The translations under genes were made by a program, and so were the position numbers. A stretch of DNA of 57,601 nucleotides from Candidatus Omnitrophota bacterium (GTDB lineage Bacteria > Omnitrophota > Gorgyraeia > JABMRG01). The first letter of the stretch is position 1. Each line of letters opens with the position of its first letter. Shown here one piece after another: positions 13,887-49,339 of the stretch. The notes beneath the pieces were generated by a model that searched no databases, was not told the DNA's origin, and saw only the letters and a program-made list of their open reading frames with translations. Location of the stretch: positions 1-57,601 of the forward strand of contig JAQUQI010000010.1 in NCBI GenBank assembly GCA_028716165.1. The letters are read 5' to 3'.

Positions 13887-13902
13887 ACACATGTCTTGTA
13901 AA

Positions 13903-16338: not shown

Positions 16339-16389
16339 TTGAATACCCTTCGATTGGCGCGTTTGCGCCGCGCCTCTTAAATCCTGCTG

Positions 16390-19219
<2,830 letters not shown>

Positions 19220-19224
19220 TGTGG

Positions 19225-20319: not shown

Positions 20320-20400
20320 ATCCACAAGTCCTATTACAGCTTTTAATATTTAATTAAATAAAATAGTATTTATAGTAATATGTGTTGATAAGTTAGTATC
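20318..20400. other. Putative oriC unwinding region (DnaA box, DnaA-trio run, AT-rich DUE)
   Basis: On the minus strand, TTATCAACA (20383-20391) is followed by ca-TAT-TAC-TAT-AAA-TAC-TAT and an almost pure A/T tract. A second 1-mismatch box, ATATCCACA (plus, 20318-20326), overlaps the dnaN start. Confidence 0.75.
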
Positions 20401-20403
20401 TTT

Positions 20404-21777: not shown

Positions 21778-21868
21778 ATTTTAAAAATCCTATCTCTATT
21801 GCTAAGCAGGGCTCAAAAACTCCCTTAATTGTAATGGTTGTTGATAGCTGGACAAAAAATACGGATTC

Positions 21869-21896
21869 ATTATAACAGAACGGCGCTTGTTTGCAA
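21869..21896 (-). promoter_or_regulatory. dnaA promoter
   Basis: Minus strand reads TTGCAA-16 nt-TATAAT with TGn extension. Confidence 0.65.
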
Positions 21897-21912
21897 GCAA
21901 AAAGTTTTTACC

Positions 21913-21940
21913 TTGACTTGGGTGTGAGTTGTGTTATACT
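21913..21940 (+). promoter_or_regulatory. rpmH operon promoter
   Basis: TTGACT-16 nt-TATACT with TGn extension. Confidence 0.7.
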
Positions 21941-21949
21941 TGTTGCATT

Positions 21950-22087
21950 ATGAAAAAACATCTTACGCTGAAATCAAATCTAAAGCGCAAGCGCAAGCAC
22001 GGGTTTAAAAAACGTATGAGTACGGCCAGCGGTAGAAAAGTGCTGAAAAGCCGCAGGCGCAAGGGAAGAAAAATCCTGACAGCATGA
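21950..22087 (+). CDS. rpmH: 50S ribosomal protein L34 (missed by ORF track)
   Basis: Manual translation gives [45 protein letters not shown]; ATGA overlap with rnpA. Confidence 0.97.
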
Positions 22088-22464
22088 AACAGCGCCCGTC
22101 TGCCGTGCGCCGCGCCGTTAATTTTAGCGCGGTCAAGCGAATTACCAGGCCCGGTGACTATAAGCGCGTTTACGCAACAGGGGTTAAGTATTTCGGCCGC
22201 TCGCTCAAGGTGTATATCGTTGTAAATAATCTCCATTACACACGGATAGGGGTTGTTGTTGGCAGGCGCGTTAGCCTGTCAGCTGTTGCACGTAACAGGG
22301 TCAAGCGGATTTTGCGCCACGAGGCAAGCCGACGCATACAGGCATTAAGTCCGCGCGGGCCTCTGGATGTGGTAGTTGTAGCGCGCCCGAAACCCGACGG
22401 TGTTTGGGATTCCAAAACACTAAGAGAAGACCTTTTGCTCCTGTCTAATCGGTGGCCGCAATGA
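22084..22464 (+). CDS. rnpA: RNase P protein component
   Basis: [10 protein letters not shown].. and the RNR motif AVARNRVKR; canonical position. Confidence 0.95.
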
Positions 22465-22682
22465 ATAAGTTTTTGTGTTTTTGCGCGCAGTCTATCATAC
22501 TTTTTTACCAGGCGGTATTTATTACGCAAAGAAGGCACCCGCATTGCAAATTTTTTCCAAGCTGTTCCGATTATACAATAATGGCTTTAAAAAAACACGG
22601 TTTTTTAACAGGTATTTGCTTTGGATTATGGCGCATCCTGCGGTGCAATCCCTTTACAAAGGGCGGCGTTGATTTGCCGTAA
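22461..22682 (+). CDS. yidD: Membrane protein insertion efficiency factor
   Basis: CKFFPSCSDY and RILRCNPF..GGVD motifs. Start set at ATG 22461 (ATGA overlap). Confidence 0.93.
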   Translation: MNKFLCFCAQSIILFYQAVFITQRRHPHCKFFPSCSDYTIMALKKHGFLTGICFGLWRILRCNPFTKGGVDLP

Positions 22683-22727
22683 GCGCTTAGGAAAATCACT
22701 TAACACCCATTAAATAAAGGATTTATA

Positions 22728-24344
22728 ATGAATAGTGAAAAACGTTTACTTTTAGCGGTTTCCATTTCAATGTTGATTATTATCGCGTATCAATTCTATG
22801 CCAAACAATATACCGGTTATGGCCAGCCTCACAAGGGCCCGGTTGTATCAGCAGAGTGTGTACCAGATGTGCCCAGCTCTTTAGGTGGAGATGTGACGGC
22901 AAGCGAGATCAAGCAAGTCTATGAAACAAAAACATTGGTTAATAATAATTTGCGCGTTGAGCTGACTACTGACGGCGCCAGGGCTATCGCCGTGGATTTA
23001 TTGGATTATTTTGATAAAAGCGGCTCCGCACAGCCGCTTATAGAACATAACTTAAAAGCGCCGAGCCTTTTCAGTATTACTTTTTTGCCTGATAGCGCTG
23101 TTGCGCGCTGGGATCTCGTTGAAGCAAGTGCAATAAGCGCGGTGTTTAAAAGTCGTTTCAGCGGTGTTGATATTACAAAAACCATTATTTTATCGCAAGA
23201 TAGCAATCAAATGGAAATGGTTTTAAGGTTTGCTAATCACGCAAAACACGCAAGTACTTTTCAATATCAGCTTTATAATGGAATATTGGCGGCAGGCAAG
23301 GGTTCTATGGATAGCCGATATATAGGCGCGGATATATGCTTTGATAATCAGATCATAAGGCGCGGCATATCAGGCAAAACGCTCAAGGGCAAAGAGTCGT
23401 TTTTTGGTAGTCCTGCATGGGTGACAACGCGCGGACGGTATTTTTCTTTCATTATGAAACCAAAACAACCTGCTCAATCTGTGAGCGTGCAAAGCAAAAC
23501 AAAAAACGATTTATTCACCTCTGTGGTATCAGAGCCGATCGCGCTTATGCCAGACAGCACTATTGAACATCGGTTTCTTGTGTATGCCGGACCCAATGAT
23601 ATCCAGAAAATGCTATTGTTTGACCCCTCGGCCCATTCTATTATTCATTATGGATTTTTTAATGTGATAGGCAAAATTCTTTTTGATGGATTGAAAATTT
23701 TATATCATATAACGCATAATTATGGTATTGCTATTATTTTATTATCTTTACTTATTAGCATAATCATGTTTCCGCTTTCGCGTAAAAGCTTGCAATCAAT
23801 GAAGGAAATGCAAAAAATCCAACCAGAAACAGAAGCAATACGCAAGCAATTTAGTGATAATCCGCAAAAGATGAACAAGGAAATCATGGAATTATATAAA
23901 AGGCACAAAATTAATCCTCTTGGCGGATGCCTGCCGATGCTTTTACAAATCCCCATATTTTTCTCATTATACCAGGTACTTTTAAGGAGTGTTGAACTCA
24001 AAGGAGCTGGATTTTTATGGATTAAAGATTTAGCGGAGCCGGATGCAGCTTTTCAGTTACCCACTGCTGTGCGCTCGCTACCAGTGATTGGAACGTCTGT
24101 AAATATATTGCCTATTTTAATGGCTCTTGCGATGGTGTTTCAGCAGAAATTATCTTGCGGCGGGAGCAAACAATTATCTGAGCAACAGCGCATTATGGCA
24201 GTTATAATGCCGATAATGTTTGGGTTGATATTTTATAATATGCCATCAGGGCTTGTTCTGTACTGGTTTACAAACACAATGTTTATGCTTTTTTTGCAGG
24301 AAGTGATTTTAAAACTGCCAGCCTTTGCGAGCGATAAGTGTTAA
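22728..24344 (+). CDS. yidC: Membrane protein insertase
   Basis: N-terminal TM, periplasmic domain, NYGIAIILL, GGCLPMLLQIPIF, WIKDLAEPD and PSGLVLYW motifs. Confidence 0.97.
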   Translation: MNSEKRLLLAVSISMLIIIAYQFYAKQYTGYGQPHKGPVVSAECVPDVPSSLGGDVTASEIKQVYETKTLVNNNLRVELTTDGARAIAVDLLDYFDKSGSAQPLIEHNLKAPSLFSITFLPDSAVARWDLVEASAISAVFKSRFSGVDITKTIILSQDSNQMEMVLRFANHAKHASTFQYQLYNGILAAGKGSMDSRYIGADICFDNQIIRRGISGKTLKGKESFFGSPAWVTTRGRYFSFIMKPKQPAQSVSVQSKTKNDLFTSVVSEPIALMPDSTIEHRFLVYAGPNDIQKMLLFDPSAHSIIHYGFFNVIGKILFDGLKILYHITHNYGIAIILLSLLISIIMFPLSRKSLQSMKEMQKIQPETEAIRKQFSDNPQKMNKEIMELYKRHKINPLGGCLPMLLQIPIFFSLYQVLLRSVELKGAGFLWIKDLAEPDAAFQLPTAVRSLPVIGTSVNILPILMALAMVFQQKLSCGGSKQLSEQQRIMAVIMPIMFGLIFYNMPSGLVLYWFTNTMFMLFLQEVILKLPAFASDKC

Positions 24345-24359
24345 TTGGAATAATTTTTA

Positions 24360-24387
24360 TTGACTATCTTGAAAATTATTATATAAT
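24360..24387 (+). promoter_or_regulatory. parAB promoter
   Basis: TTGACT-16 nt-TATAAT. Confidence 0.7.
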
Positions 24388-24423
24388 TAGCTTATAAAAC
24401 GATATTATTAAATAGGCAGTACG

Positions 24424-24439
24424 TGTTCCACGTGGAACA
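24424..24439. promoter_or_regulatory. parS centromere site
   Basis: Perfect 16-bp palindrome TGTTCCACGTGGAACA fitting the chromosomal parS consensus, 12 nt upstream of parA. Confidence 0.93.
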
Positions 24440-24451
24440 TCAGGAGTTTAT

Positions 24452-25390
24452 GTGGGCAAAATAATAGCTGTATGTAATCAAAAAGGCGGCGTTGGTAAAA
24501 CCACCACGTCCGTTAATTTAACAGCCTCATTAGGTGCTTCTGGAGCTAAAATCTTGCTTATAGATCTTGACCCTCAAGCAAATGCCACAAGCGGCCTTGG
24601 TATTGATAAAAAAAATATTAAATATAATGTTTATCATGTGCTTATTGAATCGCAACAACTGTGCGATGTTATACTGGATTCCGGGTTTGCTAATTTGTTT
24701 ATTGCCCCATCTGATACACATCTTACAGGCGCACAGCTTGAGCTGGTTAATGCGTTTAACCGTGAACATAGATTAAAAAACAGCTTAGCTTCTATTAGCC
24801 ACAATTATGACTTTATTTTTATTGATTGTCCTCCAAGCCTTGGTTTACTGACTATAAACGCGCTTACAGCAGCAAACACTATACTTATTCCATTACAATG
24901 CGAGTTTTATGCCATGGAAGGCCTTAGCCAATTATTGCAAACCGTAAAACTTGTGCAGGATCATTTGAACCCCACTCTTGATATTGAAGGGGTTGTATTG
25001 ACTATGGCAGATTATAGAACTAATCTGACAAATGAAGTAGTTGCTGAAGCCAAAAACTTTTTTAAAAATAAAATTTACGATACGGTGATACCTCGTTCAA
25101 TACGCTTAAGCGAAGCGCCCGGACACGGCAAACCGGCTATTGTCTATGATAAGAATTCTAATGGCGCTATGGCTTATCAACAGTTAGCCACAGAATTTCT
25201 AAATCGTAACAACTTTAATAATAATAAGATGCAAGAAATAAATGAATCAATCCACATTAAATCAACAACAGAGAGTGTGGGTATGGATAGTCAAAACCAG
25301 GATACTTGCCAAGGGGTTAATACGACAGCAGATATGCCGGTAGAGGCAGTACCCGATAAGGCAGAGAGTGACGGAGGCGGTAATGGATAA
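24452..25390 (+). CDS. parA: ParA/Soj ATPase with C-terminal extension
   Basis: NQKGGVGKTT, DLDPQANAT, DCPPSLG and IPRSIRLSEAP motifs. Confidence 0.97.
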   Translation: MGKIIAVCNQKGGVGKTTTSVNLTASLGASGAKILLIDLDPQANATSGLGIDKKNIKYNVYHVLIESQQLCDVILDSGFANLFIAPSDTHLTGAQLELVNAFNREHRLKNSLASISHNYDFIFIDCPPSLGLLTINALTAANTILIPLQCEFYAMEGLSQLLQTVKLVQDHLNPTLDIEGVVLTMADYRTNLTNEVVAEAKNFFKNKIYDTVIPRSIRLSEAPGHGKPAIVYDKNSNGAMAYQQLATEFLNRNNFNNNKMQEINESIHIKSTTESVGMDSQNQDTCQGVNTTADMPVEAVPDKAESDGGGNG

Positions 25391-26270
25391 GCGAAAGGCC
25401 TTAGGCAGGGGCTTTGATGCCCTTATGCCGGAGAAGACCACGGACAATAATAATCTTGGCTTATTGGCAACAGATAATAACACTAATGTTCATATGTTGA
25501 ACATAACTGATATCGTGCCCGGTAAATACCAGCCGCGGTCGGTTTTTAAGCAAGATAAGCTTAACGAGCTTGTCTTGTCTATCAAGGAAAAAGGGGTTGT
25601 CCAGCCTCTTTTGGTCAGGCGGGCTGTTACGGGTTATGAATTAATAGCAGGCGAGAGACGCTTAAGAGCGGCAAAAGAGTTGGGTATGACAACAATACCG
25701 GCTATTATCAAAGATGTTGACGATCTCAACGCGATGGAAATGGCTTTGATAGAGAATCTACAAAGGGAAGATCTGAACCCTATTGAAGAAGCTCTTGCTT
25801 ATCAAAAATTAAGCAGCGAATTTAATTTCACCCAGGAACAGATTGCTCAAGCTGTCGGGAGGGACAGGGCGTCTATAGCCAATACACTACGCTTGCTCCA
25901 TTTGCCCGAAACCGTTCAACGCCTGCTTGCTGAAGATATGATACAAATGGGGCACGCGCGGGCACTGCTTGCGATAGCCGATAAAAATAAACAGGCAAGG
26001 ATATGCGAAAAGATTATCCAGAAAGGGTTGTCTGTCCGCGAAGTTGAATTTTTAGCCAGACCTCATGCCGCTTTGCGCAAACAACAGCCCTATCACGGCA
26101 CCGGAGATCCGCACACACAGGCCATACAGGACGCGCTTGAAAAAATTTTAGGCACAAAGGTTATGATACAACACAGAAAAAAGCGCGGTAAGATTGTTAT
26201 AGATTACTATTCGCTGGATGACCTGGACCGTATTCTCGGCGTCATGCAATTAAAAATCAATTCTTTTTAA
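25383..26270 (+). CDS. parB: ParB/Spo0J
   Basis: KALGRG, QPR, the GERRLRA CTP-binding motif, ENLQREDLNPIEEA and an HTH. Start set at ATG 25383. Confidence 0.97.
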   Translation: MDKRKALGRGFDALMPEKTTDNNNLGLLATDNNTNVHMLNITDIVPGKYQPRSVFKQDKLNELVLSIKEKGVVQPLLVRRAVTGYELIAGERRLRAAKELGMTTIPAIIKDVDDLNAMEMALIENLQREDLNPIEEALAYQKLSSEFNFTQEQIAQAVGRDRASIANTLRLLHLPETVQRLLAEDMIQMGHARALLAIADKNKQARICEKIIQKGLSVREVEFLARPHAALRKQQPYHGTGDPHTQAIQDALEKILGTKVMIQHRKKRGKIVIDYYSLDDLDRILGVMQLKINSF

Positions 26271-26486
26271 GGCTGATTTTTAGACGCGGTCTTTATCAGG
26301 GTAATGTGCCTGCGCGCGTCCGACGGAATATAGCATACAATGACCGCCGCCAAACGGCTAAATTGGTTGGCCCGGTTTGCCGTGTTTACATGCCGCTTAC
26401 AGTATTTTTTATGAGATGTCTTTTATTTTACTCAAGAGAACCTTTTGGTTTTATTTTGGCAGCCGCAACTTTGGTAAAAATACTCA

Positions 26487-28832: not shown

Positions 28833-29060
28833 GTGGTGCCAAATATCGGTTTGGAAGTATTATACGCCAAAACAGGCAGTATTTATAAATTGGTTGTAAT
28901 GGCTGCCAAGCGCGCGATAGAAATCAATGCGGCCGCGGCGCAGACAGTTCAAAATCCGGTAGATAACGCGATGGGCGCGGCCCTTGATGAAATCGCGGCG
29001 GGCAAGCTTTCATTCAAGAAACAAAAAGGTAAAGCGCAAGATGCGGCACAACAGAAGTAG
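28833..29060 (+). CDS. rpoZ: RNA polymerase omega subunit
   Basis: SIYKLVVMAAKRA...ALDEIAAG motif; position after gmk. Confidence 0.9.
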   Translation: MVPNIGLEVLYAKTGSIYKLVVMAAKRAIEINAAAAQTVQNPVDNAMGAALDEIAAGKLSFKKQKGKAQDAAQQK

Positions 29061-29592
29061 GCGCACAATTTTGATAGGCGTATGCGCTGGCATAGCGGCA
29101 TATAAAGTTTGCGATGCTATAACTGCTTTGAGAAAATTGGATTACGATGTTGTGGTTTGCATGAGCGCGCGCGCGCGTTTTTTTATTACACCGCTTACCC
29201 TGCAAACGCTGTCGGGCAATAAGATATTTGAGGACATGTTTGTGCCCGCGCAAGATTATGGGCTCGCGCATATTTCGCTTGCGGAAAGAGCGGACCTGGT
29301 GGTTGTGATACCGGCAACGGCTGATATTATAGCGAAGACAGCACACGGTATCTGCGATGAATTGTTAACCTGCGTTATAGCTTCCACAAAAGCGCCGGTA
29401 TTATTTGCGCCGGCGATGAACCAGGCTATGTATGCCAATCCGGTATTGCAGTCCAATATCAGCGCTTTAAAGAAACTGAAATATCACTTTATTGGCCCTG
29501 TCACAGGGCACCTTGCCTGCGGGGCAACCGGTATCGGCCATATTGCCGATACCCAAGATATAATCCGCAAGGCCCAGGCCCTTCTAAAATGA
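29041..29592 (+). CDS. coaC: Phosphopantothenoylcysteine decarboxylase (stand-alone)
   Basis: GIAAYK, HISLAE, PAMN..M and GHLACG..GIG motifs. Start set at ATG 29041. Confidence 0.92.
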   Translation: MRHNRSRRTILIGVCAGIAAYKVCDAITALRKLDYDVVVCMSARARFFITPLTLQTLSGNKIFEDMFVPAQDYGLAHISLAERADLVVVIPATADIIAKTAHGICDELLTCVIASTKAPVLFAPAMNQAMYANPVLQSNISALKKLKYHFIGPVTGHLACGATGIGHIADTQDIIRKAQALLK

Positions 29593-30260
29593 TTCCCTTA
29601 AAAATACTGGTTACAGCAGGCCCTACTTGTGAAGCAATAGACCCTGTCCGTTTTATTACCAATCGCTCAACGGGTTGTATGGGCTATGCTATAGCCGCCA
29701 GAGGAGCGCGGGCCGGGCATAAGCTTACTTTAATAAGCGGGCCTGTATGCTTAAAACCTCCCGACGGTGTAAAAACGGTTTATATTACTACAGCCAGGGA
29801 GATGTTTGCCGAGGTGAAACGCCACATCAAAGGCAAGCATTGCCTTATTATGGCCGCGGCTGTAGCTGATTTTCGCCCCGCATTTTGCGCGCGGCAAAAA
29901 ATCAAAAAAACTAATATGCCCAGGACTATTTCCTTGCGCCGTAACCCCGATATTCTGGCATGGGCAGGCGCTCACAAAAGTAAGATGATTTTAGCCGGTT
30001 TCTGTATGGAGACACAAAACCTTTTGACCCGGGCGAAAAGAAAACAAATCTTAAAAAATGTTGATTTTATGGTGGCCAATAAAATAGAGGCCGACGGAGT
30101 TCCTTTTGGGCATAAGCCGGCAAGCTTTGTTCTTTTTGGGCCTGACGGCAGGAAGGTTTTTTTACAGAATGCCAGTAAGGAAAAAATAGCAGGTATCCTG
30201 CTTGATAAAATCCAAGGAATGTGGTATAAGAGAAATCCCGGCCGCAACGCGGCCGTGTGA
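29589..30260 (+). CDS. coaB: Phosphopantothenate--cysteine ligase (stand-alone)
   Basis: LVTAGPT.E.IDPVRFITN, AAAVADF, KIKK, NPDIL and GFCMET motifs. Confidence 0.92.
   Translation: MIPLKILVTAGPTCEAIDPVRFITNRSTGCMGYAIAARGARAGHKLTLISGPVCLKPPDGVKTVYITTAREMFAEVKRHIKGKHCLIMAAAVADFRPAFCARQKIKKTNMPRTISLRRNPDILAWAGAHKSKMILAGFCMETQNLLTRAKRKQILKNVDFMVANKIEADGVPFGHKPASFVLFGPDGRKVFLQNASKEKIAGILLDKIQGMWYKRNPGRNAAV
30202..30230 (+). promoter_or_regulatory. Putative promoter for tRNA-Cys inside the coaB 3' end
   Basis: TTGATA-17 nt-TATAAG with TGn extension. Confidence 0.5.
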
Positions 30261-30289
30261 ATATTAACGCCTATTTTAAGTATAATTAT

Positions 30290-30364
30290 GGCGGCATAGC
30301 CAAGTGGTAAGGCAGTGGTCTGCAAAACCACTATTCAGCGGTTCGAATCCGCTTGCCGCCTCCA
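30290..30364 (+). tRNA. tRNA-Cys(GCA)
   Basis: GGCGGCA...GTGGT-CTGCAAA-ACCAC...GGTTCGAATCC...TGCCGCCTCCA. Confidence 0.96.
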
Positions 30365-30379
30365 TTTTTATGATCTTTT

Positions 30380-31626
30380 ATGACATATGTAAGGCTATTC
30401 TTAGATAATAAGCGTATTATATCGTTTGGTTTTTTATTAACGCTTTTTTCAAGTGCGGGACAAACTTTTTTTCTTTCTTTATATGTAAATTCCATTCTTT
30501 TGGATTTTCATCTGACAAACGCGTCTTTCGGAGCCCTTTATAGCGCGGCAACAATATTAAGCGCGATAGCCTTGGCATGTGCCGGTCGATTTATAGATTA
30601 TTATAATCTGCGCACCTATGCCATGGTATCATCCGGACTGCTCGCCGCATCATGTCTTGTTACCGCTTTATCTCGGAATATCATATTATTGTTTATAGGG
30701 CTTTGGGGGCTTAGATTTGCAGGGCAAGGTTTATTGAGCCACATCTCAAGCACGTCAATGGCGAAATTTTTTACCGACAAACGCGGCAAGGCTTTGAGCG
30801 TTTCGGTGCTTGGTTACGCGCTCGGTGAAGGCCTTTTGCCTGTTATCATAACAGGGGTCATTTTGCTGGCAGGTTGGCGGCAATCAATGCTGATATGCTC
30901 CGTTTTTATATGCGGCAGTCTTATGCCGTTTATTTGGTTTACGCTTGGCAAAAAGCATCTGCAATATTTTCCGGATAACGCTGATACCGGACCGATGGAG
31001 GCCGGGTTTGATGCCCGGGCGCTCTTAAAAAGCAGGGGCTTTTTACTAATAGCGGCTAATTTCAGCATATTACCCTGCGTGATAACAGGGCTGTTTGTTT
31101 ATCAGCAGGCCCTTGCTGCTGAAAAGATGTGGCCTATGGGGTGGTTGGCGCGACCTGTTTCATGGGTTACGCGGGATGCAGGGCCGTGTTTTGCGTAATA
31201 AGCGGACGGCTTGTTGACAAGTTTTCTGCCACAACGCTTTTGCCTGTTTTCCTTCTTCCATTCGCTTTTGCTTTATTGATTATAACGTTTTTTAGGCATC
31301 CGCTCGCGGCGCTTGTGTATTTAGCGCTGGCAGGTGTGGCTATAGGTATGAGTAATATCATTAATACGGCTTTTCTCGCTGAAGTATACGGCCAAAGGCA
31401 TATTGGCGGTATCAGGGCGATTTTATCCACGATTATAGTTATAGCGACAGCAGTAGGGCCTTTGTTGTTTGGTTTTTTATTGGATAGAGGTGCCAGCTTT
31501 AGCGCGGTTGCCGCATTATCTGCCGTGTTTGTTCTATGGACCGCGGTAAGCAGTTACAGACATGCCCCGTATTTTAAAACGCAAAGCGCAAAAAAAATCT
31601 TGACAAATAAAGGCAATAATGTATAA
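30380..31626 (+). pseudogene. MFS transporter, frameshifted
   Basis: Two overlapping ORFs (30380-31198 and 31129-31626) encode the N- and C-halves, each with an MFS motif A-like GRFID/GRLVD. The frame breaks at GCGCG 31148-31152. Confidence 0.8.
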
Positions 31627-31627
31627 T
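31600..31627 (+). promoter_or_regulatory. Promoter of the Fur-family gene cluster
   Basis: TTGACA-16 nt-TATAAT; the MFS stop codon lies inside the -10 hexamer. Confidence 0.75.
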
Positions 31628-31629
31628 TG

Positions 31630-31651
31630 CTAATGATAACCATTATTATTA
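31630..31651. promoter_or_regulatory. Fur-type operator 1
   Basis: CTAATGATAACCATTATTATTA, a near-perfect 7-1-7 TAATGAT-A-ACCATTA, just downstream of the -10. Confidence 0.75.
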
Positions 31652-31670
31652 ATAAATTTTTGGAAATATT

Positions 31671-32141
31671 ATGAAAACGAGAGGTTGCAGCGGCCCGCTT
31701 TGGTGGCACGGCAGATTCAGGGGCTGCGGTTATAGGATAACCGCGGGCAGAGAAGCTGTTTTGGATGTTTTGTCTGAATCAGGCAAGCATCTTAGCGCCG
31801 AAGACATATATATGAAGGTGTATTCAAGGTATGCCAATATAGGGTTGGCAACAGTTTACAGAACGCTGGATGTCCTTGTCCATTTGGGCCTTGTTTTTAA
31901 ATTTGATTTCGGCGATAAAAAAGCCCGTTATGAGTTAGCGGAAGGGCCGAAAGGCCTGCGGCACCATCATCACTTGATATGCACCCGCTGTAGGCGGATC
32001 ATTGATTACACGGATTTTATTGATGAAGAAATAGAACTGCTTAGCCGGACGGAAAAAGGGCTTTCAAAAAAATATGAATTTAAAATTACAAATCATCTGA
32101 TCCAGTTTTATGGCCTCTGCGCCGCTTGTGCCAAGGAGTAG
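31671..32141 (+). CDS. Fur-family transcriptional regulator
   Basis: HLSAEDIY, GLATVYRTL, RYE, HHHHLICTRC and CAAC motifs. Confidence 0.93.
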   Translation: MKTRGCSGPLWWHGRFRGCGYRITAGREAVLDVLSESGKHLSAEDIYMKVYSRYANIGLATVYRTLDVLVHLGLVFKFDFGDKKARYELAEGPKGLRHHHHLICTRCRRIIDYTDFIDEEIELLSRTEKGLSKKYEFKITNHLIQFYGLCAACAKE

Positions 32142-32158
32142 GACATATTTTTTTTGCG

Positions 32159-32183
32159 TAATAATGAAAATGGTTATCAATAG
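32159..32183. promoter_or_regulatory. Fur-type operator 2
   Basis: TAATAATGAAAATGGTTATCAATAG. Its reverse complement CTATTGATAACCATTTTCATTA shares TGATAACCATT with operator 1. Confidence 0.7.
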
Positions 32184-32243
32184 TAAGAAAGCGGTGGCGG
32201 AGGACGAAGGCTGTATTTGGTTTTATAAAAAAGGAGGTGTAAT

Positions 32244-32585
32244 ATGCCGGCAGGAGACGGGACGGGGCCTATGGGATTAGGTCCAATGACAGGAAGGGCG
32301 GCGGGTTTTTGCGCAGGCTATTCTCTGCCTGGTTGCGCAAATGCTGTTTATGGAAGAGCGTATGGGGCGGGTAGAGGTTTTGGGATGGCTTACCGTGCGA
32401 TTGGGCCGAGGAGACGGTTTTGCGCGGCAGGTTATTATGACGGATATCCGTACGGCGCTGAAATAGCGCCACAGGATGAGGCGGATACCCTTAAACGCGA
32501 ATCAGGATTTTTGAAGGGGCGTCTTGAAGAGATCTATCAGCGTATCGCGGTTTTGGAAAAGATGCGTTCGCAAGAAAGCGATTAG
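32244..32585 (+). CDS. DUF5320-family protein
   Basis: MPAGDGTGPMGLGPMTGRAAGFCAG start, Gly/Arg/Tyr-rich middle and C-terminal coiled coil. Confidence 0.88.
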   Translation: MPAGDGTGPMGLGPMTGRAAGFCAGYSLPGCANAVYGRAYGAGRGFGMAYRAIGPRRRFCAAGYYDGYPYGAEIAPQDEADTLKRESGFLKGRLEEIYQRIAVLEKMRSQESD

Positions 32586-32635
32586 AAAAATATTCCCACT
32601 GTTTTTAATAACCGCATTACCGGAAGGGAGTTGTT

Positions 32636-33028
32636 ATGCGTGTAGCGATATCTACGGACGGGGATTTTGTTTCAGCTCATTTTGGCAGGTGTCCGGTTTT
32701 TACAATAGTTGATATTGAAAACGGTAAAGTGACAAAACGACAAGAGGTTTTAAATCCCGGGCATGAGCCTGGAGCTATACCGCAGTTTTTACATCAAAAA
32801 GAAATAGACTGCATAGTTGCCGGCGGCATGGGCGCCAGGGCGGAATCCTTTTTCCAAGGCTTTGGAATAAAGACCATTGCCGGGATAAGCGGCACAATAA
32901 GCTCGGTCATTGAAAAGCTTGAAAAAGGCAGCCTTGAGCCCGGAGATAGTTTTTGCAGGCCCGGCGCCGGCAAGGGGTATGGTCTTGATAAAAAGATATG
33001 CGATCACCCCGGCGAAAACAAGCGTTAA
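32636..33028 (+). CDS. NifB/NifX-family (FeMo-cofactor-binding-like) protein
   Basis: SAHFGRCPVF, NPGH and AGGMG motifs. Confidence 0.9.
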   Translation: MRVAISTDGDFVSAHFGRCPVFTIVDIENGKVTKRQEVLNPGHEPGAIPQFLHQKEIDCIVAGGMGARAESFFQGFGIKTIAGISGTISSVIEKLEKGSLEPGDSFCRPGAGKGYGLDKKICDHPGENKR

Positions 33029-33046
33029 GCATTTTAAGGAGAATTT

Positions 33047-33412
33047 ATGAAGATATGCGTGACCTCGCAAGGAAAGGATTTAGACGCCAAGGTAGACCCG
33101 CGTTTTGGCAGGTGCCGGTATTTTGTGTTTGTTGATATGGACACACTGGAATTTGAATGTGTTGAAAATTCAAATATGCAATCAAGCGGCGGTGCCGGCA
33201 TAAAATCAGCCCAGCTTGTGGCGGCTAAAGGCGTAAAAGCCGTTGTGACGGGCAATGTCGGACCGAACGCCTATCAGACGTTAGGGGCGGCAGGTATTGG
33301 TATTTTTGTCGGCGCGTCCGGGACAATAAAAGACGCTATTGGGGAATACAAAACAGGCGGCCTGCAAACGGCATCCGGCCCAAGTGTCGGATCAAAATCC
33401 GGCATGCCTTAA
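33047..33412 (+). CDS. NifB/NifX-family protein
   Basis: DPRFGRCRYF, GGAGIKSAQ and VTGNVGPNA motifs. Confidence 0.9.
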   Translation: MKICVTSQGKDLDAKVDPRFGRCRYFVFVDMDTLEFECVENSNMQSSGGAGIKSAQLVAAKGVKAVVTGNVGPNAYQTLGAAGIGIFVGASGTIKDAIGEYKTGGLQTASGPSVGSKSGMP

Positions 33413-33479
33413 AAAGACCAATTTTGCCGGCTTCATTTAAGATGAAACAAGAAAAGGTGTTTACCGAAAGGCGGTTAGC

Positions 33480-33680
33480 ATGCCATCAAAAGACGGGACA
33501 GGGCCTCGGGGCTTGGAACAGATAAGGCAAAAGGGCGCAGGCAGGGGGAGCCGTTACGGCGCGGGCCCTGGCGGATATTGCGTTTGCCCCATATGCAAAA
33601 CGAAAACACCTCATCAGGCAGGCTTGCCGTGCGCTTTATTATCATGTCCAAAATGCGGCACGAAAATGTCCAGAGGATGA
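33480..33680 (+). CDS. Small DUF5320-like protein with Zn-ribbon
   Basis: MPSKDGTGPRG start; GPGGYCVCPIC...PC....CPKCG. Confidence 0.8.
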   Translation: MPSKDGTGPRGLEQIRQKGAGRGSRYGAGPGGYCVCPICKTKTPHQAGLPCALLSCPKCGTKMSRG

Positions 33681-33687
33681 TACTGAT

Positions 33688-34308
33688 TTGAAGCAGGATA
33701 TTGTTGAAAATCATAAGCACTACTTAAAAAGGCTGGATTTTTATAAGAGTTTTGGTTATGACTTGGAAAAAGAAAGAGATTTTGTTTACAGGATGGCCCT
33801 GCCGTTTACCGGAAGAATACTTGAGATCGGCACAGGTAAAGGACATTTTACGCTTGCGCTTGCCGCGCAAGGCTTCCGCTTTACTACTATAGATATCTCC
33901 GACCAAGACCAGATAACAGCGAAACTTAATCTTAGGTATTTTGGATTGGAAAAACAGGTCAAGATGATTATTGCTGACGCGCAAAAAACCGGTTTTCCGG
34001 ACAAACATTTTGACACAATATTTTCTGTTAATGTTTTGCACCATCTTCGCAATCCCAAAGCGGTTTTAAGTGAGATAACCCGGATTTTGGGCCCTTGCGG
34101 TAAAGTGGTATTATGTGATTTTAATAAAAAGGGAATGGATATCATCAATAGGTGCCACGCCCATGAAGGCAAGAAGCACGATTCTTACGGGTGCTGTTTG
34201 GATGATGCGGAAAAATATTTTTTAAAAAAAAGTTTTACCGTGAGCAGGTTTCATGGCGGCACCCAAGAAGGTGTAATTGCAGTTCCACGGCAGAGAGTAG
34301 AGACATGA
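33688..34308 (+). CDS. Class I SAM-dependent methyltransferase
   Basis: Motif I ILEIGTGKG; IDIS and FDTIFSVNVLHH. Confidence 0.9.
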   Translation: MKQDIVENHKHYLKRLDFYKSFGYDLEKERDFVYRMALPFTGRILEIGTGKGHFTLALAAQGFRFTTIDISDQDQITAKLNLRYFGLEKQVKMIIADAQKTGFPDKHFDTIFSVNVLHHLRNPKAVLSEITRILGPCGKVVLCDFNKKGMDIINRCHAHEGKKHDSYGCCLDDAEKYFLKKSFTVSRFHGGTQEGVIAVPRQRVET

Positions 34309-35150
34309 TTATTGCGGTTGCCAGCGGTAAAGGCGGAACGGGCAAGACAACAGTGGCAGTTAATATTGCCCTATCCTTGGATAATGTGCAATTTCTTGAT
34401 TGTGACGTTGAAGAACCTAACGCGCATATTTTTTTAAAACCCCGGATAGAAAAAACAATCTTATCAAGTATCCCCGTGCCCGAGATTGACACGAAAAAAT
34501 GCGTTTATTGCGGTAAATGCGCCGAGGTCTGTGTTTATAACGCGATAGCTATAGTGCCGCCAACCAACAATAACGCGGGAGTGGCTTTGACCCTGACGAA
34601 TCTATGCCACGGCTGCCAAGCGTGCAGTTTTTTTTGCCCAAAAGGTGCGATAAGAGAGAGAAAAAAGGAAATCGGGGTCGTAGAGTTTGGTTCAAAAAAA
34701 GACATTGAATTTATACATGGCAGGTTGAATATCGGTGAAGCAATGGCGCCTCCGGTCATACGCCAGGTAAAGGGGCATATCAATCCGCGAAAGACCGTAA
34801 TAATTGACGCCCCTCCGGGCGTGTCGTGCCCTGTTATCGCTGCGGTCAAAGACAGTGATTTCTGCCTGCTGGTTACGGAACCGACGCCTTTTGGGTTAAG
34901 CGATTTATCGCTGGCAGTAGAGCTCTTACACAAACTGCGCGTTCCGTTCGGGGTGATAATAAACAGGGCCGATCTCGGGGACAAGGAAACCGAACGATAT
35001 TGCGAAAAAGAGAAGATAGAGATATTGATGAAGATACCGTTTAATAAAGAAATAGCGCTGGCCTATTCCAGAGGAGAAGCGGTGGTAAACGTATTGCCGG
35101 AATACAAAACGAAATTCAAGGATCTTTTTCAAAAAATAGCGCACAGATAA
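34305..35150 (+). CDS. MinD-superfamily P-loop ATPase with inserted 2x[4Fe-4S] ferredoxin (COG1149-like)
   Basis: SGKGGTGKTT, DCDVEEPN, CVYCGKCAEVC, CHGCQACSFFC, DAPPGVSCP and VTEPT motifs. Confidence 0.92.
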   Translation: MIIAVASGKGGTGKTTVAVNIALSLDNVQFLDCDVEEPNAHIFLKPRIEKTILSSIPVPEIDTKKCVYCGKCAEVCVYNAIAIVPPTNNNAGVALTLTNLCHGCQACSFFCPKGAIRERKKEIGVVEFGSKKDIEFIHGRLNIGEAMAPPVIRQVKGHINPRKTVIIDAPPGVSCPVIAAVKDSDFCLLVTEPTPFGLSDLSLAVELLHKLRVPFGVIINRADLGDKETERYCEKEKIEILMKIPFNKEIALAYSRGEAVVNVLPEYKTKFKDLFQKIAHR

Positions 35151-35163
35151 GGTTAAAGCGGCG

Positions 35164-36033
35164 ATGAAACAGATTGTTATTATAAGCGGCAAAGGCGGCA
35201 CGGGCAAGACTGTAATCACGGGAGCCTTCGCGGCTCTGGCAAAGAATAAAGTTATGGCCGATTGCGATGTTGATGCCGCCGATCTTCACCTGCTTTTGCG
35301 GCCGGAAATTAAAGAGCGCCATGATTTTAAAAGCGGACTTAGTTTCAGGATAAAAAAAAGGGCATGCACGCAGTGCGGGGAATGTAAAAAGGTATGCAGA
35401 TTCAACGCCATAAGCGATAAATTTATAATTGATCCTATATCTTGCGAAGGATGCGGTTTCTGTGCCCGTGTCTGCCCGGCAGATGCTATAAGCATGGAGG
35501 AAAATCTTGCGGGCGAATGGTTTATTTCCGAGACGCGTTTTGGGCCCATGGTGCATGCCAAGTTAGGCGTGGCTGAAGAAAACTCAGGCAAACTTGTCGC
35601 GCTTGTCAGGGAGCAAGCAAAAGGGCTTGCGGAAAACACAGGCGCCGAATGGGTTATTGTTGACGGGGCCCCGGGCATAGGTTGTCCTGTTATCGCTTCG
35701 CTTTCAGGCATAGATTGCGCCGTAGTAGTGACGGAACCCACCCTGTCGGGCCTGCATGACGCATCAAGGGTTATAGAGGTTGCCAGGCATTTTAACGTAT
35801 TTTCAAGTCTTATAATCAATAAATATGATTTAAACCCTGATATGACCCGGCGCATAGAAATATACTGTAAAACAAACGGTATCCCTGTTATGGGCAGGAT
35901 TGCGTTTGATAAATCGGTCGTTGAGGCTGTGTCTAAAGCAAAGACGGTAATGGAATCCGCTCAAAACGCGGTTAAACGCTCTCTTCGCGATATCTGGCAG
36001 AGGTTGAGTGTTGGCAACTTTAAAACCGCCTAA
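35164..36033 (+). CDS. MinD-superfamily P-loop ATPase with inserted 2x[4Fe-4S] ferredoxin (paralog)
   Basis: SGKGGTGKT, DCDVDAADL, CTQCGECKKVC, CEGCGFCARVC and DGAPGIGCP motifs. Confidence 0.92.
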   Translation: MKQIVIISGKGGTGKTVITGAFAALAKNKVMADCDVDAADLHLLLRPEIKERHDFKSGLSFRIKKRACTQCGECKKVCRFNAISDKFIIDPISCEGCGFCARVCPADAISMEENLAGEWFISETRFGPMVHAKLGVAEENSGKLVALVREQAKGLAENTGAEWVIVDGAPGIGCPVIASLSGIDCAVVVTEPTLSGLHDASRVIEVARHFNVFSSLIINKYDLNPDMTRRIEIYCKTNGIPVMGRIAFDKSVVEAVSKAKTVMESAQNAVKRSLRDIWQRLSVGNFKTA

Positions 36034-36096
36034 GCCGCATCAGAGGCATAACTGCCGCATCGCGTCTGTTCAGGAGACGGCGGGAAAAAGGCGGAA

Positions 36097-36810
36097 ATGA
36101 AGATCAAGATAATATTTGATAAAGGTGCTTTGAATAAAAAATTATGTACAGGTTGGGGTGTTTCTATTTTAATAAACGATAAAGTGCTGTTTGATACAGG
36201 CGGTAACGGAGAATGCCTGCTCAAGAATATGCGCTTGCTGAAAGTGGACACAAAAAAAATAGAAGCGTTTATTATATCCCACGATCATTGGGACCACTGG
36301 GGCGGGTTATGGCACGCTATAGGGGGCCGAAAAGGCGTAAAGGTGTATATATGCCAAGGTTTTAGCGATGAGTTCAAGACCAGGGCGGAAGCTTTTAAGG
36401 TTAAGCTCATTGAGCTTGACGGGCCCGTGCAGATATTTAAGAATATTTTTATTACAGGTGGAATGCCCGGTACGTATGGCAGGATGCGCCTGTTTGAACA
36501 AGCGGTATTGTTAAGGACAAAAAACGGCATAACCATTATTACGGGTTGCGCGCATCCTGGAATAGATACTATGCTCCGGACGGTAAAAAGATATTACCCG
36601 GACGAATCCTTATATCTTGCTTTGGGCGGATTTCATCTTAAAAATACCGATGCCGAAACGATTGAAGAAATTATCCGCAAATGCAGGGAGTTGGGTGTCA
36701 AAAAAGTCGGCCCTATCCATTGCTCCGGGGAAATAGCGGAGAACGCGTTTAAAAAGCATTATGGAAATAATTTTTTGGCTGCACAGGCAGGTTGGGAGAT
36801 AGCGGTTTGA
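36097..36810 (+). CDS. Metallo-beta-lactamase-fold hydrolase (COG1237-like)
   Basis: WGVS, LFDTG, SHDHWDHWGG, TGCAHPG, GGFHL and PIHCSG motifs. Confidence 0.9.
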   Translation: MKIKIIFDKGALNKKLCTGWGVSILINDKVLFDTGGNGECLLKNMRLLKVDTKKIEAFIISHDHWDHWGGLWHAIGGRKGVKVYICQGFSDEFKTRAEAFKVKLIELDGPVQIFKNIFITGGMPGTYGRMRLFEQAVLLRTKNGITIITGCAHPGIDTMLRTVKRYYPDESLYLALGGFHLKNTDAETIEEIIRKCRELGVKKVGPIHCSGEIAENAFKKHYGNNFLAAQAGWEIAV

Positions 36811-36848
36811 TTAGAGGCTATGAGCTTAACCGATAGGAGGCGTAAGAG

Positions 36849-37205
36849 ATGGAGAAAACATTTGGTTATGAGTTGATTCTTGATCTTTATGATTGCGATT
36901 TAGATGTCATGAGGTCAAAAGATAAACTTACCGAATATGTGGACACGCTTTGTCCGCTGATTAAAATGGAGAAATACGGCAATACCATGCTTGAGTATTT
37001 TGGTACCAAAAAGCCGCACACTAAAGGTTATTCCCTTCTGCAATTTATAGAAACAAGTTCCATTACGGGTCATTTTAGCGAACATTGGCGGATAGCGTAT
37101 ATAAATATTTTTTCCTGTAAAAACTTTGACCCGAAAAAAGCAAAGGAGTTTACAAAGTTTTTTTTCAAAGCGTCAAAGGTCAAGGCAAGGTTTATAAAAA
37201 GGTAA
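36849..37205 (+). CDS. S-adenosylmethionine decarboxylase-like proenzyme
   Basis: FGYELILDLYDC start, QFIETSSITGHF cleavage-like motif, and YINIFSCKNFD. Confidence 0.8.
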   Translation: MEKTFGYELILDLYDCDLDVMRSKDKLTEYVDTLCPLIKMEKYGNTMLEYFGTKKPHTKGYSLLQFIETSSITGHFSEHWRIAYINIFSCKNFDPKKAKEFTKFFFKASKVKARFIKR

Positions 37206-37434
37206 GAGCGGGTTTTATATAATAGAAATTTTTTAGGCGAATTAACACGGGCATTATATGCCGCGCAGTTTTACTTTTTTGAGGATTCGTGTTATTTCAC
37301 AGGCGCGGCCTGTTTTTTGCAAGGCGTCAAATCAGACCGTATTTTTTGGATAATGTCAAACCAGTAAACCCTTTGAATTCGTTCAAGGGCGTATTTTATT
37401 TCATATTAAGCATAAACGCGGTATAAAAACGTGC

Positions 37435-37463
37435 TTTACAGCTTAGGGCAAATCTGGTATAGT
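37435..37463 (+). promoter_or_regulatory. Putative tRNA-Val promoter
   Basis: TTTACA-17 nt-TATAGT with TGn extension. Confidence 0.6.
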
Positions 37464-37487
37464 TAATATTACAGCGGATTGAGCGAA

Positions 37488-37566
<79 letters not shown>

Positions 37567-37590
37567 CAAACCCTTAAAAATGTGGTCTTG

Positions 37591-38052
37591 ATGAGACAGA
37601 TTTGTTATACGAAAAAATACCAGGCAGCGGTAAAAGGCATATTATTTTTAGCGTGTGTGTTTTTTTGTCCCCTGCCGTGCGCTTATTCGGCGGTAGAAAC
37701 AAATACCGATATTGTCACTGAGGAACTGGCAAAAGCGCAAACCAGTTGGGATGGCAGCCAGTTACCCGTTTATCCTAAGGGCGTGCCGGAAGTGACTATT
37801 CTGCGTATCACCATTCCGCAGGGCGCACAATTGCCGCTTCATAAACACCCTGTTATTAATGCAGGCGTAATGCTTAAGGGCGAGCTTGCTGTTATAACGG
37901 AGAATAATAAGCTGTTGCGCCTGAAAGAAGGTGATGCAATCGTTGAGGTTGTGGACAAGTGGCATTATGGTAAAAATGAAGGTGATGGGCCTGCGGAGAT
38001 TATTGTTTTTTACGCGGGGGAGCGTAATAGTTCTATCACGGTTACCCCTTAA
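37591..38052 (+). CDS. Secreted cupin-domain protein
   Basis: Signal-peptide-like start ending AYS-A; LPLHKHP, GVMLKGEL, EGDAIVE and HYGKN motifs. Start moved past the tRNA to ATG 37591. Confidence 0.82.
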   Translation: MRQICYTKKYQAAVKGILFLACVFFCPLPCAYSAVETNTDIVTEELAKAQTSWDGSQLPVYPKGVPEVTILRITIPQGAQLPLHKHPVINAGVMLKGELAVITENNKLLRLKEGDAIVEVVDKWHYGKNEGDGPAEIIVFYAGERNSSITVTP

Positions 38053-38383
38053 TTCAGGGTGAAATTTAATATGCAGGCAATGCTATGGACAGCCTTAAGT
38101 CAGCAGGGGCCACAGGCCTTATAATGACTTTTGGCTGTTTTTATTTTCCGGTAGTATTATTATGTTTAGTTATAAAACATAAATTGATTACACTAATTAT
38201 TACACAAAATATATAATAGAAGCATCAACTAACAGGTAGTTGCTATTGACAGGAAAAGTGTTTTTTGATATATTATTAACATATAAAATGTGTAAAACGG
38301 ACTTTTGTTGCGTATAAATAGATACCTGCCCATAGTGGGCACATTTTTTTCTGTATACTAGTAACATAAGCAAGGTGTGAAAT

Positions 38384-38472
38384 GCCGGGATGGCGGAATT
38401 GGCAGACGCCTTGGACTTAAAATCCAATGGGTAGTAATACCCGTGCCGGTTCAAGTCCGGCTCCCGGCACCA
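38384..38472 (+). tRNA. tRNA-Leu(UAA)
   Basis: GCCGGGA...TTGGA-CTTAAAA-TCCAA, long variable arm, GGTTCAAGTCC...TCCCGGCACCA. Confidence 0.96.
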
Positions 38473-46694: not shown

Positions 46695-46701
46695 TATCCT
46701 A

Positions 46702-46885
46702 TCCCTGCTGTGTGCGTGGCTTGTTGACGATACTTTGAGCCAACACCTTTATATCGGGAGCCTGACTTCAGGGGCGGAAGGCACGCTCTCTTAACAGAGA
46801 GAAACCACGGAAACCTTTGAGAGGGCACCCACTTTACTATAAGGGTTCAAAGTGCGTTACTCGCCCGGCACGTGCGGGGTTTTTT
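46702..46885 (+). ncRNA. ssrS: 6S RNA
   Basis: About 180-nt rod: CCCTGC pairs with GCGGGG and ACTTTGAGCC pairs with GGGTTCAAAGT. GGGAGC and GGGCACCCAC motifs flank a central bubble; it ends in a T-tract and lies downstream of pheT. Confidence 0.85.
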
Positions 46886-49297: not shown

Positions 49298-49339
49298 TTT
49301 TTTTCTTTTTAGACGGATCGTGATTTTTAGGAGATACAG

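Follow-up and report, generated by a model that had tools for sequence, protein, structure and literature searches.

What does a bacterium of the candidate phylum Omnitrophota do with a gene string in which a Fur-type regulator is followed by NifX-like proteins and by a pair of ATPases that carry ferredoxin motifs? This question is raised by ten genes at positions 31671-37205 of a 57,601-nucleotide (nt) stretch of DNA (Candidatus Omnitrophota bacterium, assembly GCA_028716165.1, contig JAQUQI010000010.1), which we call the window. A first reading of the letters, hereafter the original prediction, had put the cluster forward as an uncharacterised, metal-responsive system for handling iron-sulfur (Fe-S) clusters or other metallocofactors. 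Judged by sequence comparison, the core of the cluster (genes 3, 4, 7 and 8) is homologous to the core of the orange protein (ORP) cluster of Desulfovibrio, and the system is of a known kind. What is new is the presence of Fur in place of the regulator OrpR or a DUF134 protein, together with lineage-specific genes related to S-adenosylmethionine (SAM), in candidate phyla that are poorly studied. We put at roughly 0.55 the probability that this is a Fur-governed system of the ORP type, released from repression under iron shortage, in which ATP and electrons are spent on the handling of Fe-S or metal-sulfide clusters. The features on which the argument draws are the following.

31600-31627, plus strand: sigma-70-type promoter TTGACA-16-TATAAT upstream of fur, agreeing with the consensus at 12/12 positions
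31634-31648, plus strand: Fur box 1, 7-1-7 type, TGATAACCATTATTA, with 2 mismatches, starting 6 nt past the -10 hexamer
31671-32141, plus strand: gene 1, Fur-family repressor (PF01475, E 1.7e-31)
32165-32179, plus strand: Fur box 2, TGAAAATGGTTATCA, between fur and the DUF5320 gene
32244-32585, plus strand: gene 2, DUF5320 protein (PF17253, E 5.8e-24)
32636-33028, plus strand: gene 3, NifX-like Di-Nase protein of the HFGxC type (PF02579, E 3.7e-20; HFGRC motif)
33047-33412, plus strand: gene 4, homologue of the orange protein, ORP/Orp8 type (PF02579, E 1.7e-25; RFGRC motif)
33480-33680, plus strand: gene 5, 66-residue protein with a DUF5320-like Gly/Arg N-terminus and a module of six Cys and a His, CxCPxC...H..GxPC...CPxC
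33688-34308, plus strand: gene 6, class I SAM-dependent methyltransferase (Methyltransf_11, E 6.8e-21), whose stop overlaps the start of ATPase A by 4 nt
34305-35150, plus strand: gene 7, ATPase A, a CbiA/ParA-type P-loop ATPase of the Orp3/Orp4 type with two CxxCxxCxxxC motifs and the deviant Walker A sequence GKGGTGKT
35164-36033, plus strand: gene 8, ATPase B, a paralogue of ATPase A, with two CxxCxxCxxxC motifs
36097-36810, plus strand: gene 9, MBL-fold metallo-hydrolase (PDB matches 7DCK, E 6.2e-42, and TM1679, E 2.9e-30)
36849-37205, plus strand: gene 10, divergent AdoMetDC-family protein (PF02675, 64.9 bits, E 9.9e-18)
37287-37320, plus strand: terminator-like hairpin, ACAGGCGCGGCCTGT followed by TTTTTT, downstream of gene 10 and closing the unit before tRNA-Val

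It was the match of gene 3 to the MrpORP model NF041136 that pointed to the Desulfovibrio literature. This match reaches 88 bits, against a cut-off of 450, and covers only model positions 265-359, in the C-terminal half. MrpORP's Di-Nase domain is characterised by the motifs HFGxC, HxPGxxP and a terminal CDH (PMC6345978), and gene 3 carries HFGRC, HxPGxxP and a C-terminal CDH; to judge from these motifs, it is the stand-alone equivalent of the C-terminal (second) domain of MrpORP. For gene 4, the best PDB match is the orange protein of D. gigas, 2WFB (E 2.8e-21, 44% identity over 112 residues). The two proteins are both members of PF02579 with FGRC motifs, much as had been proposed.

The ORP cluster of D. 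vulgaris was reportedly first described in 2011 by Fievet and colleagues, as later papers cite it. The complex that it encodes comprises Orp3, Orp4, Orp5, Orp8 and Orp9/MrpORP (PMC6345978; PMC4672049); within it, the ATPases Orp3 and Orp4 are paralogues that each bear two [4Fe-4S] motifs, and Orp8 is homologous to the Mo-Cu orange protein (PMC6345978). His-tagged Orp3 co-purifies with Orp4 and Orp8 in a complex that contains Fe-S, and MrpORP transfers Fe-S clusters to the Orp3/Orp4/Orp8 complex (PMC6345978). For their transcription, the orp operons depend on sigma-54, IHF and OrpR, an activator that senses redox state (PMC3897727; PMC8359166), and the core is also found in Archaeoglobus, as AF2378-2380 (PMC3949148). 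With a purified complex, a protein that loads it and a described mode of regulation, the label "uncharacterised" has to be withdrawn. The pathway is assigned only in part, in that the system has a name and some biochemistry, but its physiological function is given as "putatively involved in cell division" (PMC6345978; PMC4672049).

How close is the relationship? A genome scan seeded on D. gigas ORP alone returned 80 loci, all in Desulfobacterota; among the 52 that extend over 12 kb or more, 50 show the order ORP > ATPase A > ATPase B > NifX-like. In these, the ATPase that comes first after ORP is ~44% identical to gene 7 and ~28-31% identical to gene 8, whereas the second is 46-50% identical to gene 8 and ~28-32% identical to gene 7; the two ATPases of the window share 31% identity in a pairwise comparison. 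Each of them has its own orthologue in Desulfobacterota, and the duplication is therefore older than the split of these phyla. The orthology to Orp3 and Orp4 is based on ORP-adjacent genes of other Desulfobacterota rather than on the D. vulgaris or G20 sequences themselves. Directly upstream of ORP, 31 of 51 Desulfobacterota loci carry a gene for a helix-turn-helix protein of the DUF134 family, often with a Cys-rich tail (for example L044 6809-7246, L049 6987-7511 and L057 7662-7931), which is absent from the window. This protein may be the counterpart of the small Fe-S protein Dde_3197/Orp5. One and the same core is thus combined, depending on the lineage, with different genes for regulators or putative regulators: OrpR, a DUF134 protein or Fur.

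If the core is an old one, do the ten genes of the window form a unit around it, or are they unrelated neighbours that came to be co-oriented by accident? All ten open reading frames (ORFs) were confirmed on the plus strand where the original prediction had placed them, tightly spaced with intergenic gaps of -4 to 102 nt and with Shine-Dalgarno-like sequences before most of them. Six further loci of the Omnitrophota type (L001, L082 and L084-L087) have the order Fur > DUF5320 > NifX > ORP > ... > methyltransferase > ATPase A > ... > ATPase B, with core proteins that are 51-82% identical (the low-complexity DUF5320 protein excepted) and with flanks that are mutually unrelated. A homology search with Fur also found the same subfamily (~72-75% identity) in one WOR-3 genome and one Ratteibacteria-labelled genome, where the gene heads a DUF5320 > NifX > NifX > ATPase string that lacks the methyltransferase. 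The window and the six loci make up seven Omnitrophota-type loci, and the WOR-3 and Ratteibacteria loci bring the contexts to nine. Fur heads the cluster in 9/9 of these, and all nine, across three candidate phyla and among differing flanks, have the core genes in the order Fur > DUF5320 > NifX > ORP > ATPase A > ATPase B.

An accidental arrangement would find some support in the cargo between and after the core genes, which differs among relatives. It includes a 55-residue ferredoxin, EncFtn-like proteins, MetK, peroxiredoxin, Pyr_redox_2, NifU_N, Mrp-type ParA (as separate genes in L084 and L087), radical SAM enzymes, ARMT1-like proteins, HypA, DnaJ, thioredoxin and FeoAB. However, accident is contradicted by the conservation of the core in all nine contexts and by that of ORP > ATPase A > ATPase B in the Desulfobacterota loci, and we find it hardly credible. 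The arrangement is far beyond chance and co-conserved, the same gene order being present in eight other loci of related candidate phyla, and the ATPase pair with its NifX-type carriers is, as anticipated, a real recurrent unit. From the promoter, the Fur boxes, the gaps and the hairpin we infer co-transcription of what is apparently one operon.

The variable genes are themselves informative. Iron and Fe-S genes found in the same strings in relatives are those for NifU_N, Mrp-type ParA, ferredoxin, EncFtn-like proteins, FeoAB, thioredoxin and peroxiredoxin. Because the contexts hold NifU_N, Mrp, ferredoxin, Feo, EncFtn and thiol-redox genes, and hold neither division nor Mo/Cu genes, they favour a function in iron-sulfur metabolism over the alternatives considered below.

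What signal, then, would such a unit obey? The original prediction had suggested Fur control from the adjacency of the gene. The promoter is the top promoter-like site within 30200-38400, and a TTGACA-N17-TATAWT promoter is present at the equivalent position in five related loci (the contig of L086 ends before the -35 element). Only two matches to TGATAATNATTATCA with at most 2 mismatches occur in the window, where 0.47 would be expected by chance, and both lie in the cluster; the box has the TG...CA ends of Fur-type boxes. Box 1 is kept directly after the -10 element in all six related loci compared (L001, L082, L084, L085, L086 and L087). Box 2 is kept in five of the six, being a perfect TGATAATGATTATCA in L087 and missing from the 28-nt gap between fur and the DUF5320 gene in L086. 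Control of the cluster by Fur, as predicted from these sites, is thus supported by two conserved boxes in addition to adjacency. No enhancer-binding protein gene of the kind that goes with OrpR and sigma-54 in ORP clusters is present in the cluster, and an Rfam scan of the cluster returned no riboswitch (the Moco riboswitch included) or other RNA element. The closest solved structures to gene 1 are Fur proteins (9IRE, 101 bits) as against PerR (73 bits), and the HHHH motif and two CxxC pairs that correspond to the metal-site residues and the structural Cys4 site of Fur are conserved. Fe(II) is the probable co-repressor, because gene 1 is nearer to Fur than to PerR or Zur and because of the type of box.

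Two further observations concern Fur and its sites. A conserved extension, PxWWHG[KR]F[RQ]Gx-GYR[IL]T (window 31671-31740), marks the N-terminus of the Fur subfamily linked to the cluster; it lies outside the Fur models and is missing from a second Fur paralogue in L085. We considered an additional Fe-S or redox sensor site at two Cys residues of this extension and rejected it, since the proteins P0196, P0134 and P0238 lack one or both. A third Fur-box-like 19-mer is found at 7011-7029, on the minus strand, within the 5' part of a dihydroorotase-like gene; it has 15/19 matches to GATAATGATAATCATTATC and is probably due to chance.

The published proposal for the Desulfovibrio complex, that a MinD-like ATPase pair places the septum or another cell structure, can be examined in the ATPases themselves. 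In the AlphaFold (AF2) model of ATPase A (pLDDT 89.2), a ferredoxin domain interrupts a MinD-type core at about residues 47-131. The top fold matches of the model are MinD (archaeal MinD first), FlhG/FleN, ApbC, Cfd1, ATPase-type HypB, BchL, NifH and CooC; identity does not exceed 21% for any of them, and the 2x[4Fe-4S] insert architecture is absent from these solved relatives. The MinD fold agrees with a role in positioning, as do the morphological defects seen in D. vulgaris without OrpR and the polar localisation of MrpORP (PMC6345978, PMC3897727, PMC4672049). However, what the ATPases have in common with MinD is the fold and the Walker A sequence. They fall far below the cut-offs of the MinD models (minD_arch, 65.7 bits against 201.75; minD_bact, 55 against 212.9), no minC or minE gene lies near the cluster, and MinC/MinE or division genes occur in 0/9 contexts. 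Moreover, each ATPase has nine invariant Cys residues. An alignment of 76 orthologues of ATPase A shows an invariant deviant Walker A (GKGGxGKT), eight ferredoxin Cys and a switch-II Cys175; the Walker A, the eight ferredoxin Cys and a switch-II Cys174 are likewise invariant among 73 orthologues of ATPase B, and in both families the switch-II motif is PGxSCP. Control by Fur and the Fe-S neighbours point to metal metabolism, and the division role is termed putative throughout the cited ORP literature. We consider a role in division or positioning very unlikely.

A different alternative arises from the small proteins, namely that the cluster serves to store iron and sulfur. In this scheme, the NifX-like proteins would scaffold an inorganic, anionic iron-sulfide polymer comparable to the thioferrate of IssA, the DUF5320 tail would wrap it in trans, and the ATPase-ferredoxin pair would load it or mobilise it by reduction. 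Gene 4 matches MTH1175 (E 5.9e-21) as well as ORP, and MTH1175 belongs to the IssA clade (PMC5524996). The thioferrate-binding tail of Pyrococcus furiosus IssA counts 15 Gly, 7 cationic and 14 aromatic residues in a length of 70, with a pI of 10.7 (PMC5524996); residues 1-72 of gene 2 are close to it in composition, with 18 Gly (25%), 7 cationic and 11 aromatic (15%) residues and a pI of 9.5, and are followed by an acidic, helical C-terminus. EncFtn-like, DsrE and Pyr_redox_2 genes in related strings would also suit a store. However, genes 3 and 4 end in short or Cys/His tails and have no IssA tail on the same chain, and the likeness between DUF5320 and that tail is one of composition, not homology. 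A store would be expected at plentiful iron, whereas the operator position suggests repression by Fe-Fur. We hold storage to be rather unlikely.

Because its composition resembles the IssA tail, in likeness rather than by homology, the DUF5320 family may bind anionic metal-sulfide species, as this analogy suggests. ORFs of this family lie within ~1 kb upstream of ORP in ~14 Desulfobacterota loci. Gene 5, which had been described as a DUF5320/Zn-ribbon mini-protein, has no significant Pfam match; its six-Cys module is conserved, but its resemblance to the N-terminus of DUF5320 is sub-threshold (E 0.049). A pattern search found the module in 6/7 Omnitrophota-type loci and in 8 Desulfobacterota ORP loci. 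Literature searches on DUF5320 and on COG1149 together with COG1433 returned nothing relevant.

Might the cargo be molybdenum and copper instead? The D. gigas protein of which gene 4 is a homologue was isolated with a [S2MoS2CuS2MoS2]3- cluster, and the system could on this account detoxify or traffic thiomolybdate and copper in sulfidic habitats. The ORP genes of D. alaskensis G20 do respond on copper surfaces (PMC10533852). However, in the RNA-seq data of that strain the genes Dde_3197-3199 stand in the same top-ten lists of up- and down-regulated genes as feoA and flavodoxin (PMC10533852), which are markers of iron limitation, and this co-response fits a link to iron. Genes for Mo/W transport, Moco or copper are absent from the window and the nine contexts, the cluster has no Moco riboswitch, and its regulator is of the Fur type, not the ModE or CsoR type. 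A function in Mo/Cu handling thus seems highly improbable.

The remaining three genes are accessory. The methyltransferase gene stands directly upstream of ATPase A in 7/7 Omnitrophota-type loci, with products that are 51-55% identical; neither the WOR-3 nor the Ratteibacteria locus has it, and almost all Desulfobacterota ORP loci lack it as well. No substrate can be named for it, because its relatives in the PDB and NCBIfam are generic class I enzymes. The MBL hydrolase is present in 4/7 Omnitrophota-type loci, with homologues (51-55% identity) further downstream in L082, L084 and L085, and the two structures that it resembles, 7DCK and TM1679, have no assigned function. Gene 10 had been called AdoMetDC-like, which its Pfam match bears out, but it misses the NCBIfam equivalog cut-off (30.3 bits, against 75.65). 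Aligned to the AdoMetDC of T. maritima, it retains the Ser, His and Cys and has T-S in place of the E-S cleavage site. Such a gene is found in 3/7 Omnitrophota-type loci, the copies in L082 and L001 being 82% and 31% identical, respectively. All three genes are essentially missing from the ~50 Desulfobacterota ORP loci, in keeping with the earlier view of the methyltransferase and the AdoMetDC-like gene as lineage-specific add-ons. On this distribution, the MBL hydrolase and the AdoMetDC-like gene are optional cargo, and the methyltransferase is specific to the Omnitrophota loci.

Other SAM-related genes are found in relatives. In L086 (2169-3347 and 7676-9127) and L087 (4680-5858 and 10031-11482), MetK and a 483-residue radical SAM enzyme with a BATS domain are encoded inside the ORP gene string. 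With MetK, the radical SAM enzyme, the methyltransferase and the AdoMetDC-like gene, SAM chemistry is a recurring theme.

How might a Fur-governed, ORP-type system for Fe-S or metal-sulfide clusters work? By analogy with other deviant-Walker-A ATPases, ATPases A and B would form an ATP-dependent heterodimer to which each contributes one switch-II Cys, so that a metal or cluster could bridge the two at the interface. Electrons would come from the ferredoxin inserts, and the NifX-like proteins and the Gly/Arg/aromatic-rich DUF5320 proteins would hold or pass on anionic Fe-S or metal-sulfide species. Fe-Fur would repress the unit at plentiful iron and release it when iron is scarce, and the system would serve the supply, salvage or mobilisation of Fe-S clusters in an anaerobe. 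The methyltransferase, the MBL hydrolase and the AdoMetDC-like protein would be lineage-specific cargo. Iron as the signal, the chemistry of the heterodimer and the direction of cluster flow are steps that we infer.

Several points weigh against this proposal. In print, a function in cell division has been suggested for the Desulfovibrio complex, and what the orange protein holds on isolation is a Mo-Cu cluster rather than Fe-S. Genes for EncFtn-like proteins, which stand for iron storage, run counter to classical Fur logic when they lie in a Fur-repressed string. No client enzyme was identified, and neither the cluster nor the window holds a gene for Mrp or IscU, so that no MrpORP fusion is encoded. 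Iron as the effector metal of gene 1 is putative. Finally, no RNA runs carrying the cluster sequence were found, and the single transcript is predicted from the sequence.

One possibility can be set aside. The original prediction had noted that nitrogenase and hydrogenase genes are absent, and none is found among window ORFs of at least 90 residues; nif genes, which would accompany the maturation of a nitrogenase cofactor by NifX, NafY or NifB, are likewise missing from the window and the eight related loci. A role in the maturation of nitrogenase or hydrogenase was rejected, since such genes are absent from every context examined.

A bolder form of the Fe-S handling hypothesis can also be stated. 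The cluster could be an anaerobe-specific route of Fe-S supply, inducible by iron starvation and distinct from ISC, SUF and NIF, in which a heterodimeric ferredoxin-ATPase, driven by ATP and electrons of low potential, builds or mobilises clusters out of an inorganic, anionic iron-sulfide pool held by NifX-like proteins, with DUF5320 acting in trans like the IssA tail. Taken as a whole this is distinctly unlikely, but if it were true, the link to Fur would explain the purpose of the long-enigmatic ORP complex. That complex is conserved across strict anaerobes among both bacteria and archaea, and it has been purified and holds Fe-S. That the core has a Fur of its own here, with conserved operators, suggests iron status as the signal that controls it, and in relatives the core adjoins IscU-, Mrp-, ferredoxin-, Feo- and ferritin-like genes. 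The DUF5320 protein, the six-Cys mini-protein and the tightly coupled methyltransferase, which are not discussed alongside ORP in the cited ORP literature, are flagged here. What makes the cluster valuable is the lead that it gives on what the ORP complex does.

The surroundings of the cluster are those of a chromosomal origin. It is flanked by tRNA-Cys and an MFS gene on one side and by tRNA-Val (37488-37564) on the other, and the remainder of the window consists of housekeeping genes of an origin region: dnaA, dnaN, dciA, gyrB and gyrA on the minus strand; rnpA, yidC, parA, parB, ndk, gmk, rpoZ and coaBC on the plus strand upstream of the cluster; and thrS, infC, rpmI, rplT, trkHA and pheST on the plus strand downstream. 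The closest homologues (~70% identity) come from metagenome-assembled genomes of Candidatus Omnitrophota. The origin region itself spans 13900-26300, with dnaA at 20404-21777 and a change in the sign of the GC skew at ~20-22 kb. The MFS transporter directly upstream of fur is represented by two overlapping ORFs (30380-31198 and 31129-31626); because both match MFS_1, a frameshift, a pseudogene or an assembly error is suggested. The CoaC (Flavoprotein) and CoaB (DFP) domains are encoded at 28984-30260 by separate ORFs with a 4-nt overlap, not by one fused coaBC. The longest thrS ORF, from a GTG at 38377, overlaps tRNA-Leu (38384-38472), and the true start of thrS therefore lies further downstream. 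A 6S RNA gene is found at 46699-46884 (Rfam RF00013, 86 bits), and at 48377-50554 a pyridoxal phosphate-dependent enzyme adjoins a HcyBio (COG1900-type) sulfur-incorporation protein, a pair that is typical of homocysteine biosynthesis in anaerobes.

How, finally, does the cluster compare with systems that are already known? With the SIMIBI metallocentre ATPases (NifH/BchL, CooC, HypB and Mrp/NBP35/ApbC), the ATPases of the window share a MinD-like fold and a deviant Walker A, and their switch-II Cys could sit at a dimer interface like the cluster or metal ligands of NifH and CooC. They differ in that the first beta-alpha unit is followed by an inserted ferredoxin domain (2x[4Fe-4S]), an architecture for which there is no solved structure, and identity to any solved member is no higher than 21%.

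The suf operon of Escherichia coli is a Fur-repressed, stress-responsive Fe-S assembly system. It resembles the cluster as an Fe-S handling system with an ATPase that is under Fur and is made when iron is scarce. However, SufBCD and SufSE are unrelated to a MinD-type ATPase pair with NifX-like carriers, and the window cluster is without a cysteine desulfurase.

IssA has the same globular domain (IPR003731/PF02579), to whose clade the match of gene 4 to MTH1175 leads, and the window cluster encodes a cationic segment, rich in Gly, Arg and aromatic residues, that is comparable in size and composition. In IssA this segment is a tail on the same chain, whereas in the window it belongs to a separate DUF5320 protein; moreover, IssA is not described with a ferredoxin-ATPase pair (PMC5524996).

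The ORP systems of D. vulgaris Hildenborough and D. alaskensis G20 (Orp3, Orp4, Orp5, Orp7, Orp8 and Orp9/MrpORP, with OrpR) share several features with the cluster: a NifX-like carrier of the orange-protein type, a pair of MinD-like ATPases encoded side by side, paralogous to each other and bearing two [4Fe-4S] motifs apiece, another Di-Nase protein (HFGxC/CDH type) and an anaerobic origin, the window being derived from a landfill metagenome. The differences lie in control and in additions to the core. Sigma-54, OrpR and IHF act on two divergent operons in Desulfovibrio, whereas the window cluster is a single co-linear unit with Fur, a sigma-70 promoter and Fur boxes. The Di-Nase half that is fused to Mrp in Desulfovibrio is a stand-alone protein in the window, where the core is accompanied by the DUF5320 and six-Cys mini-proteins and has gained a SAM methyltransferase, an MBL hydrolase and an AdoMetDC-like gene.

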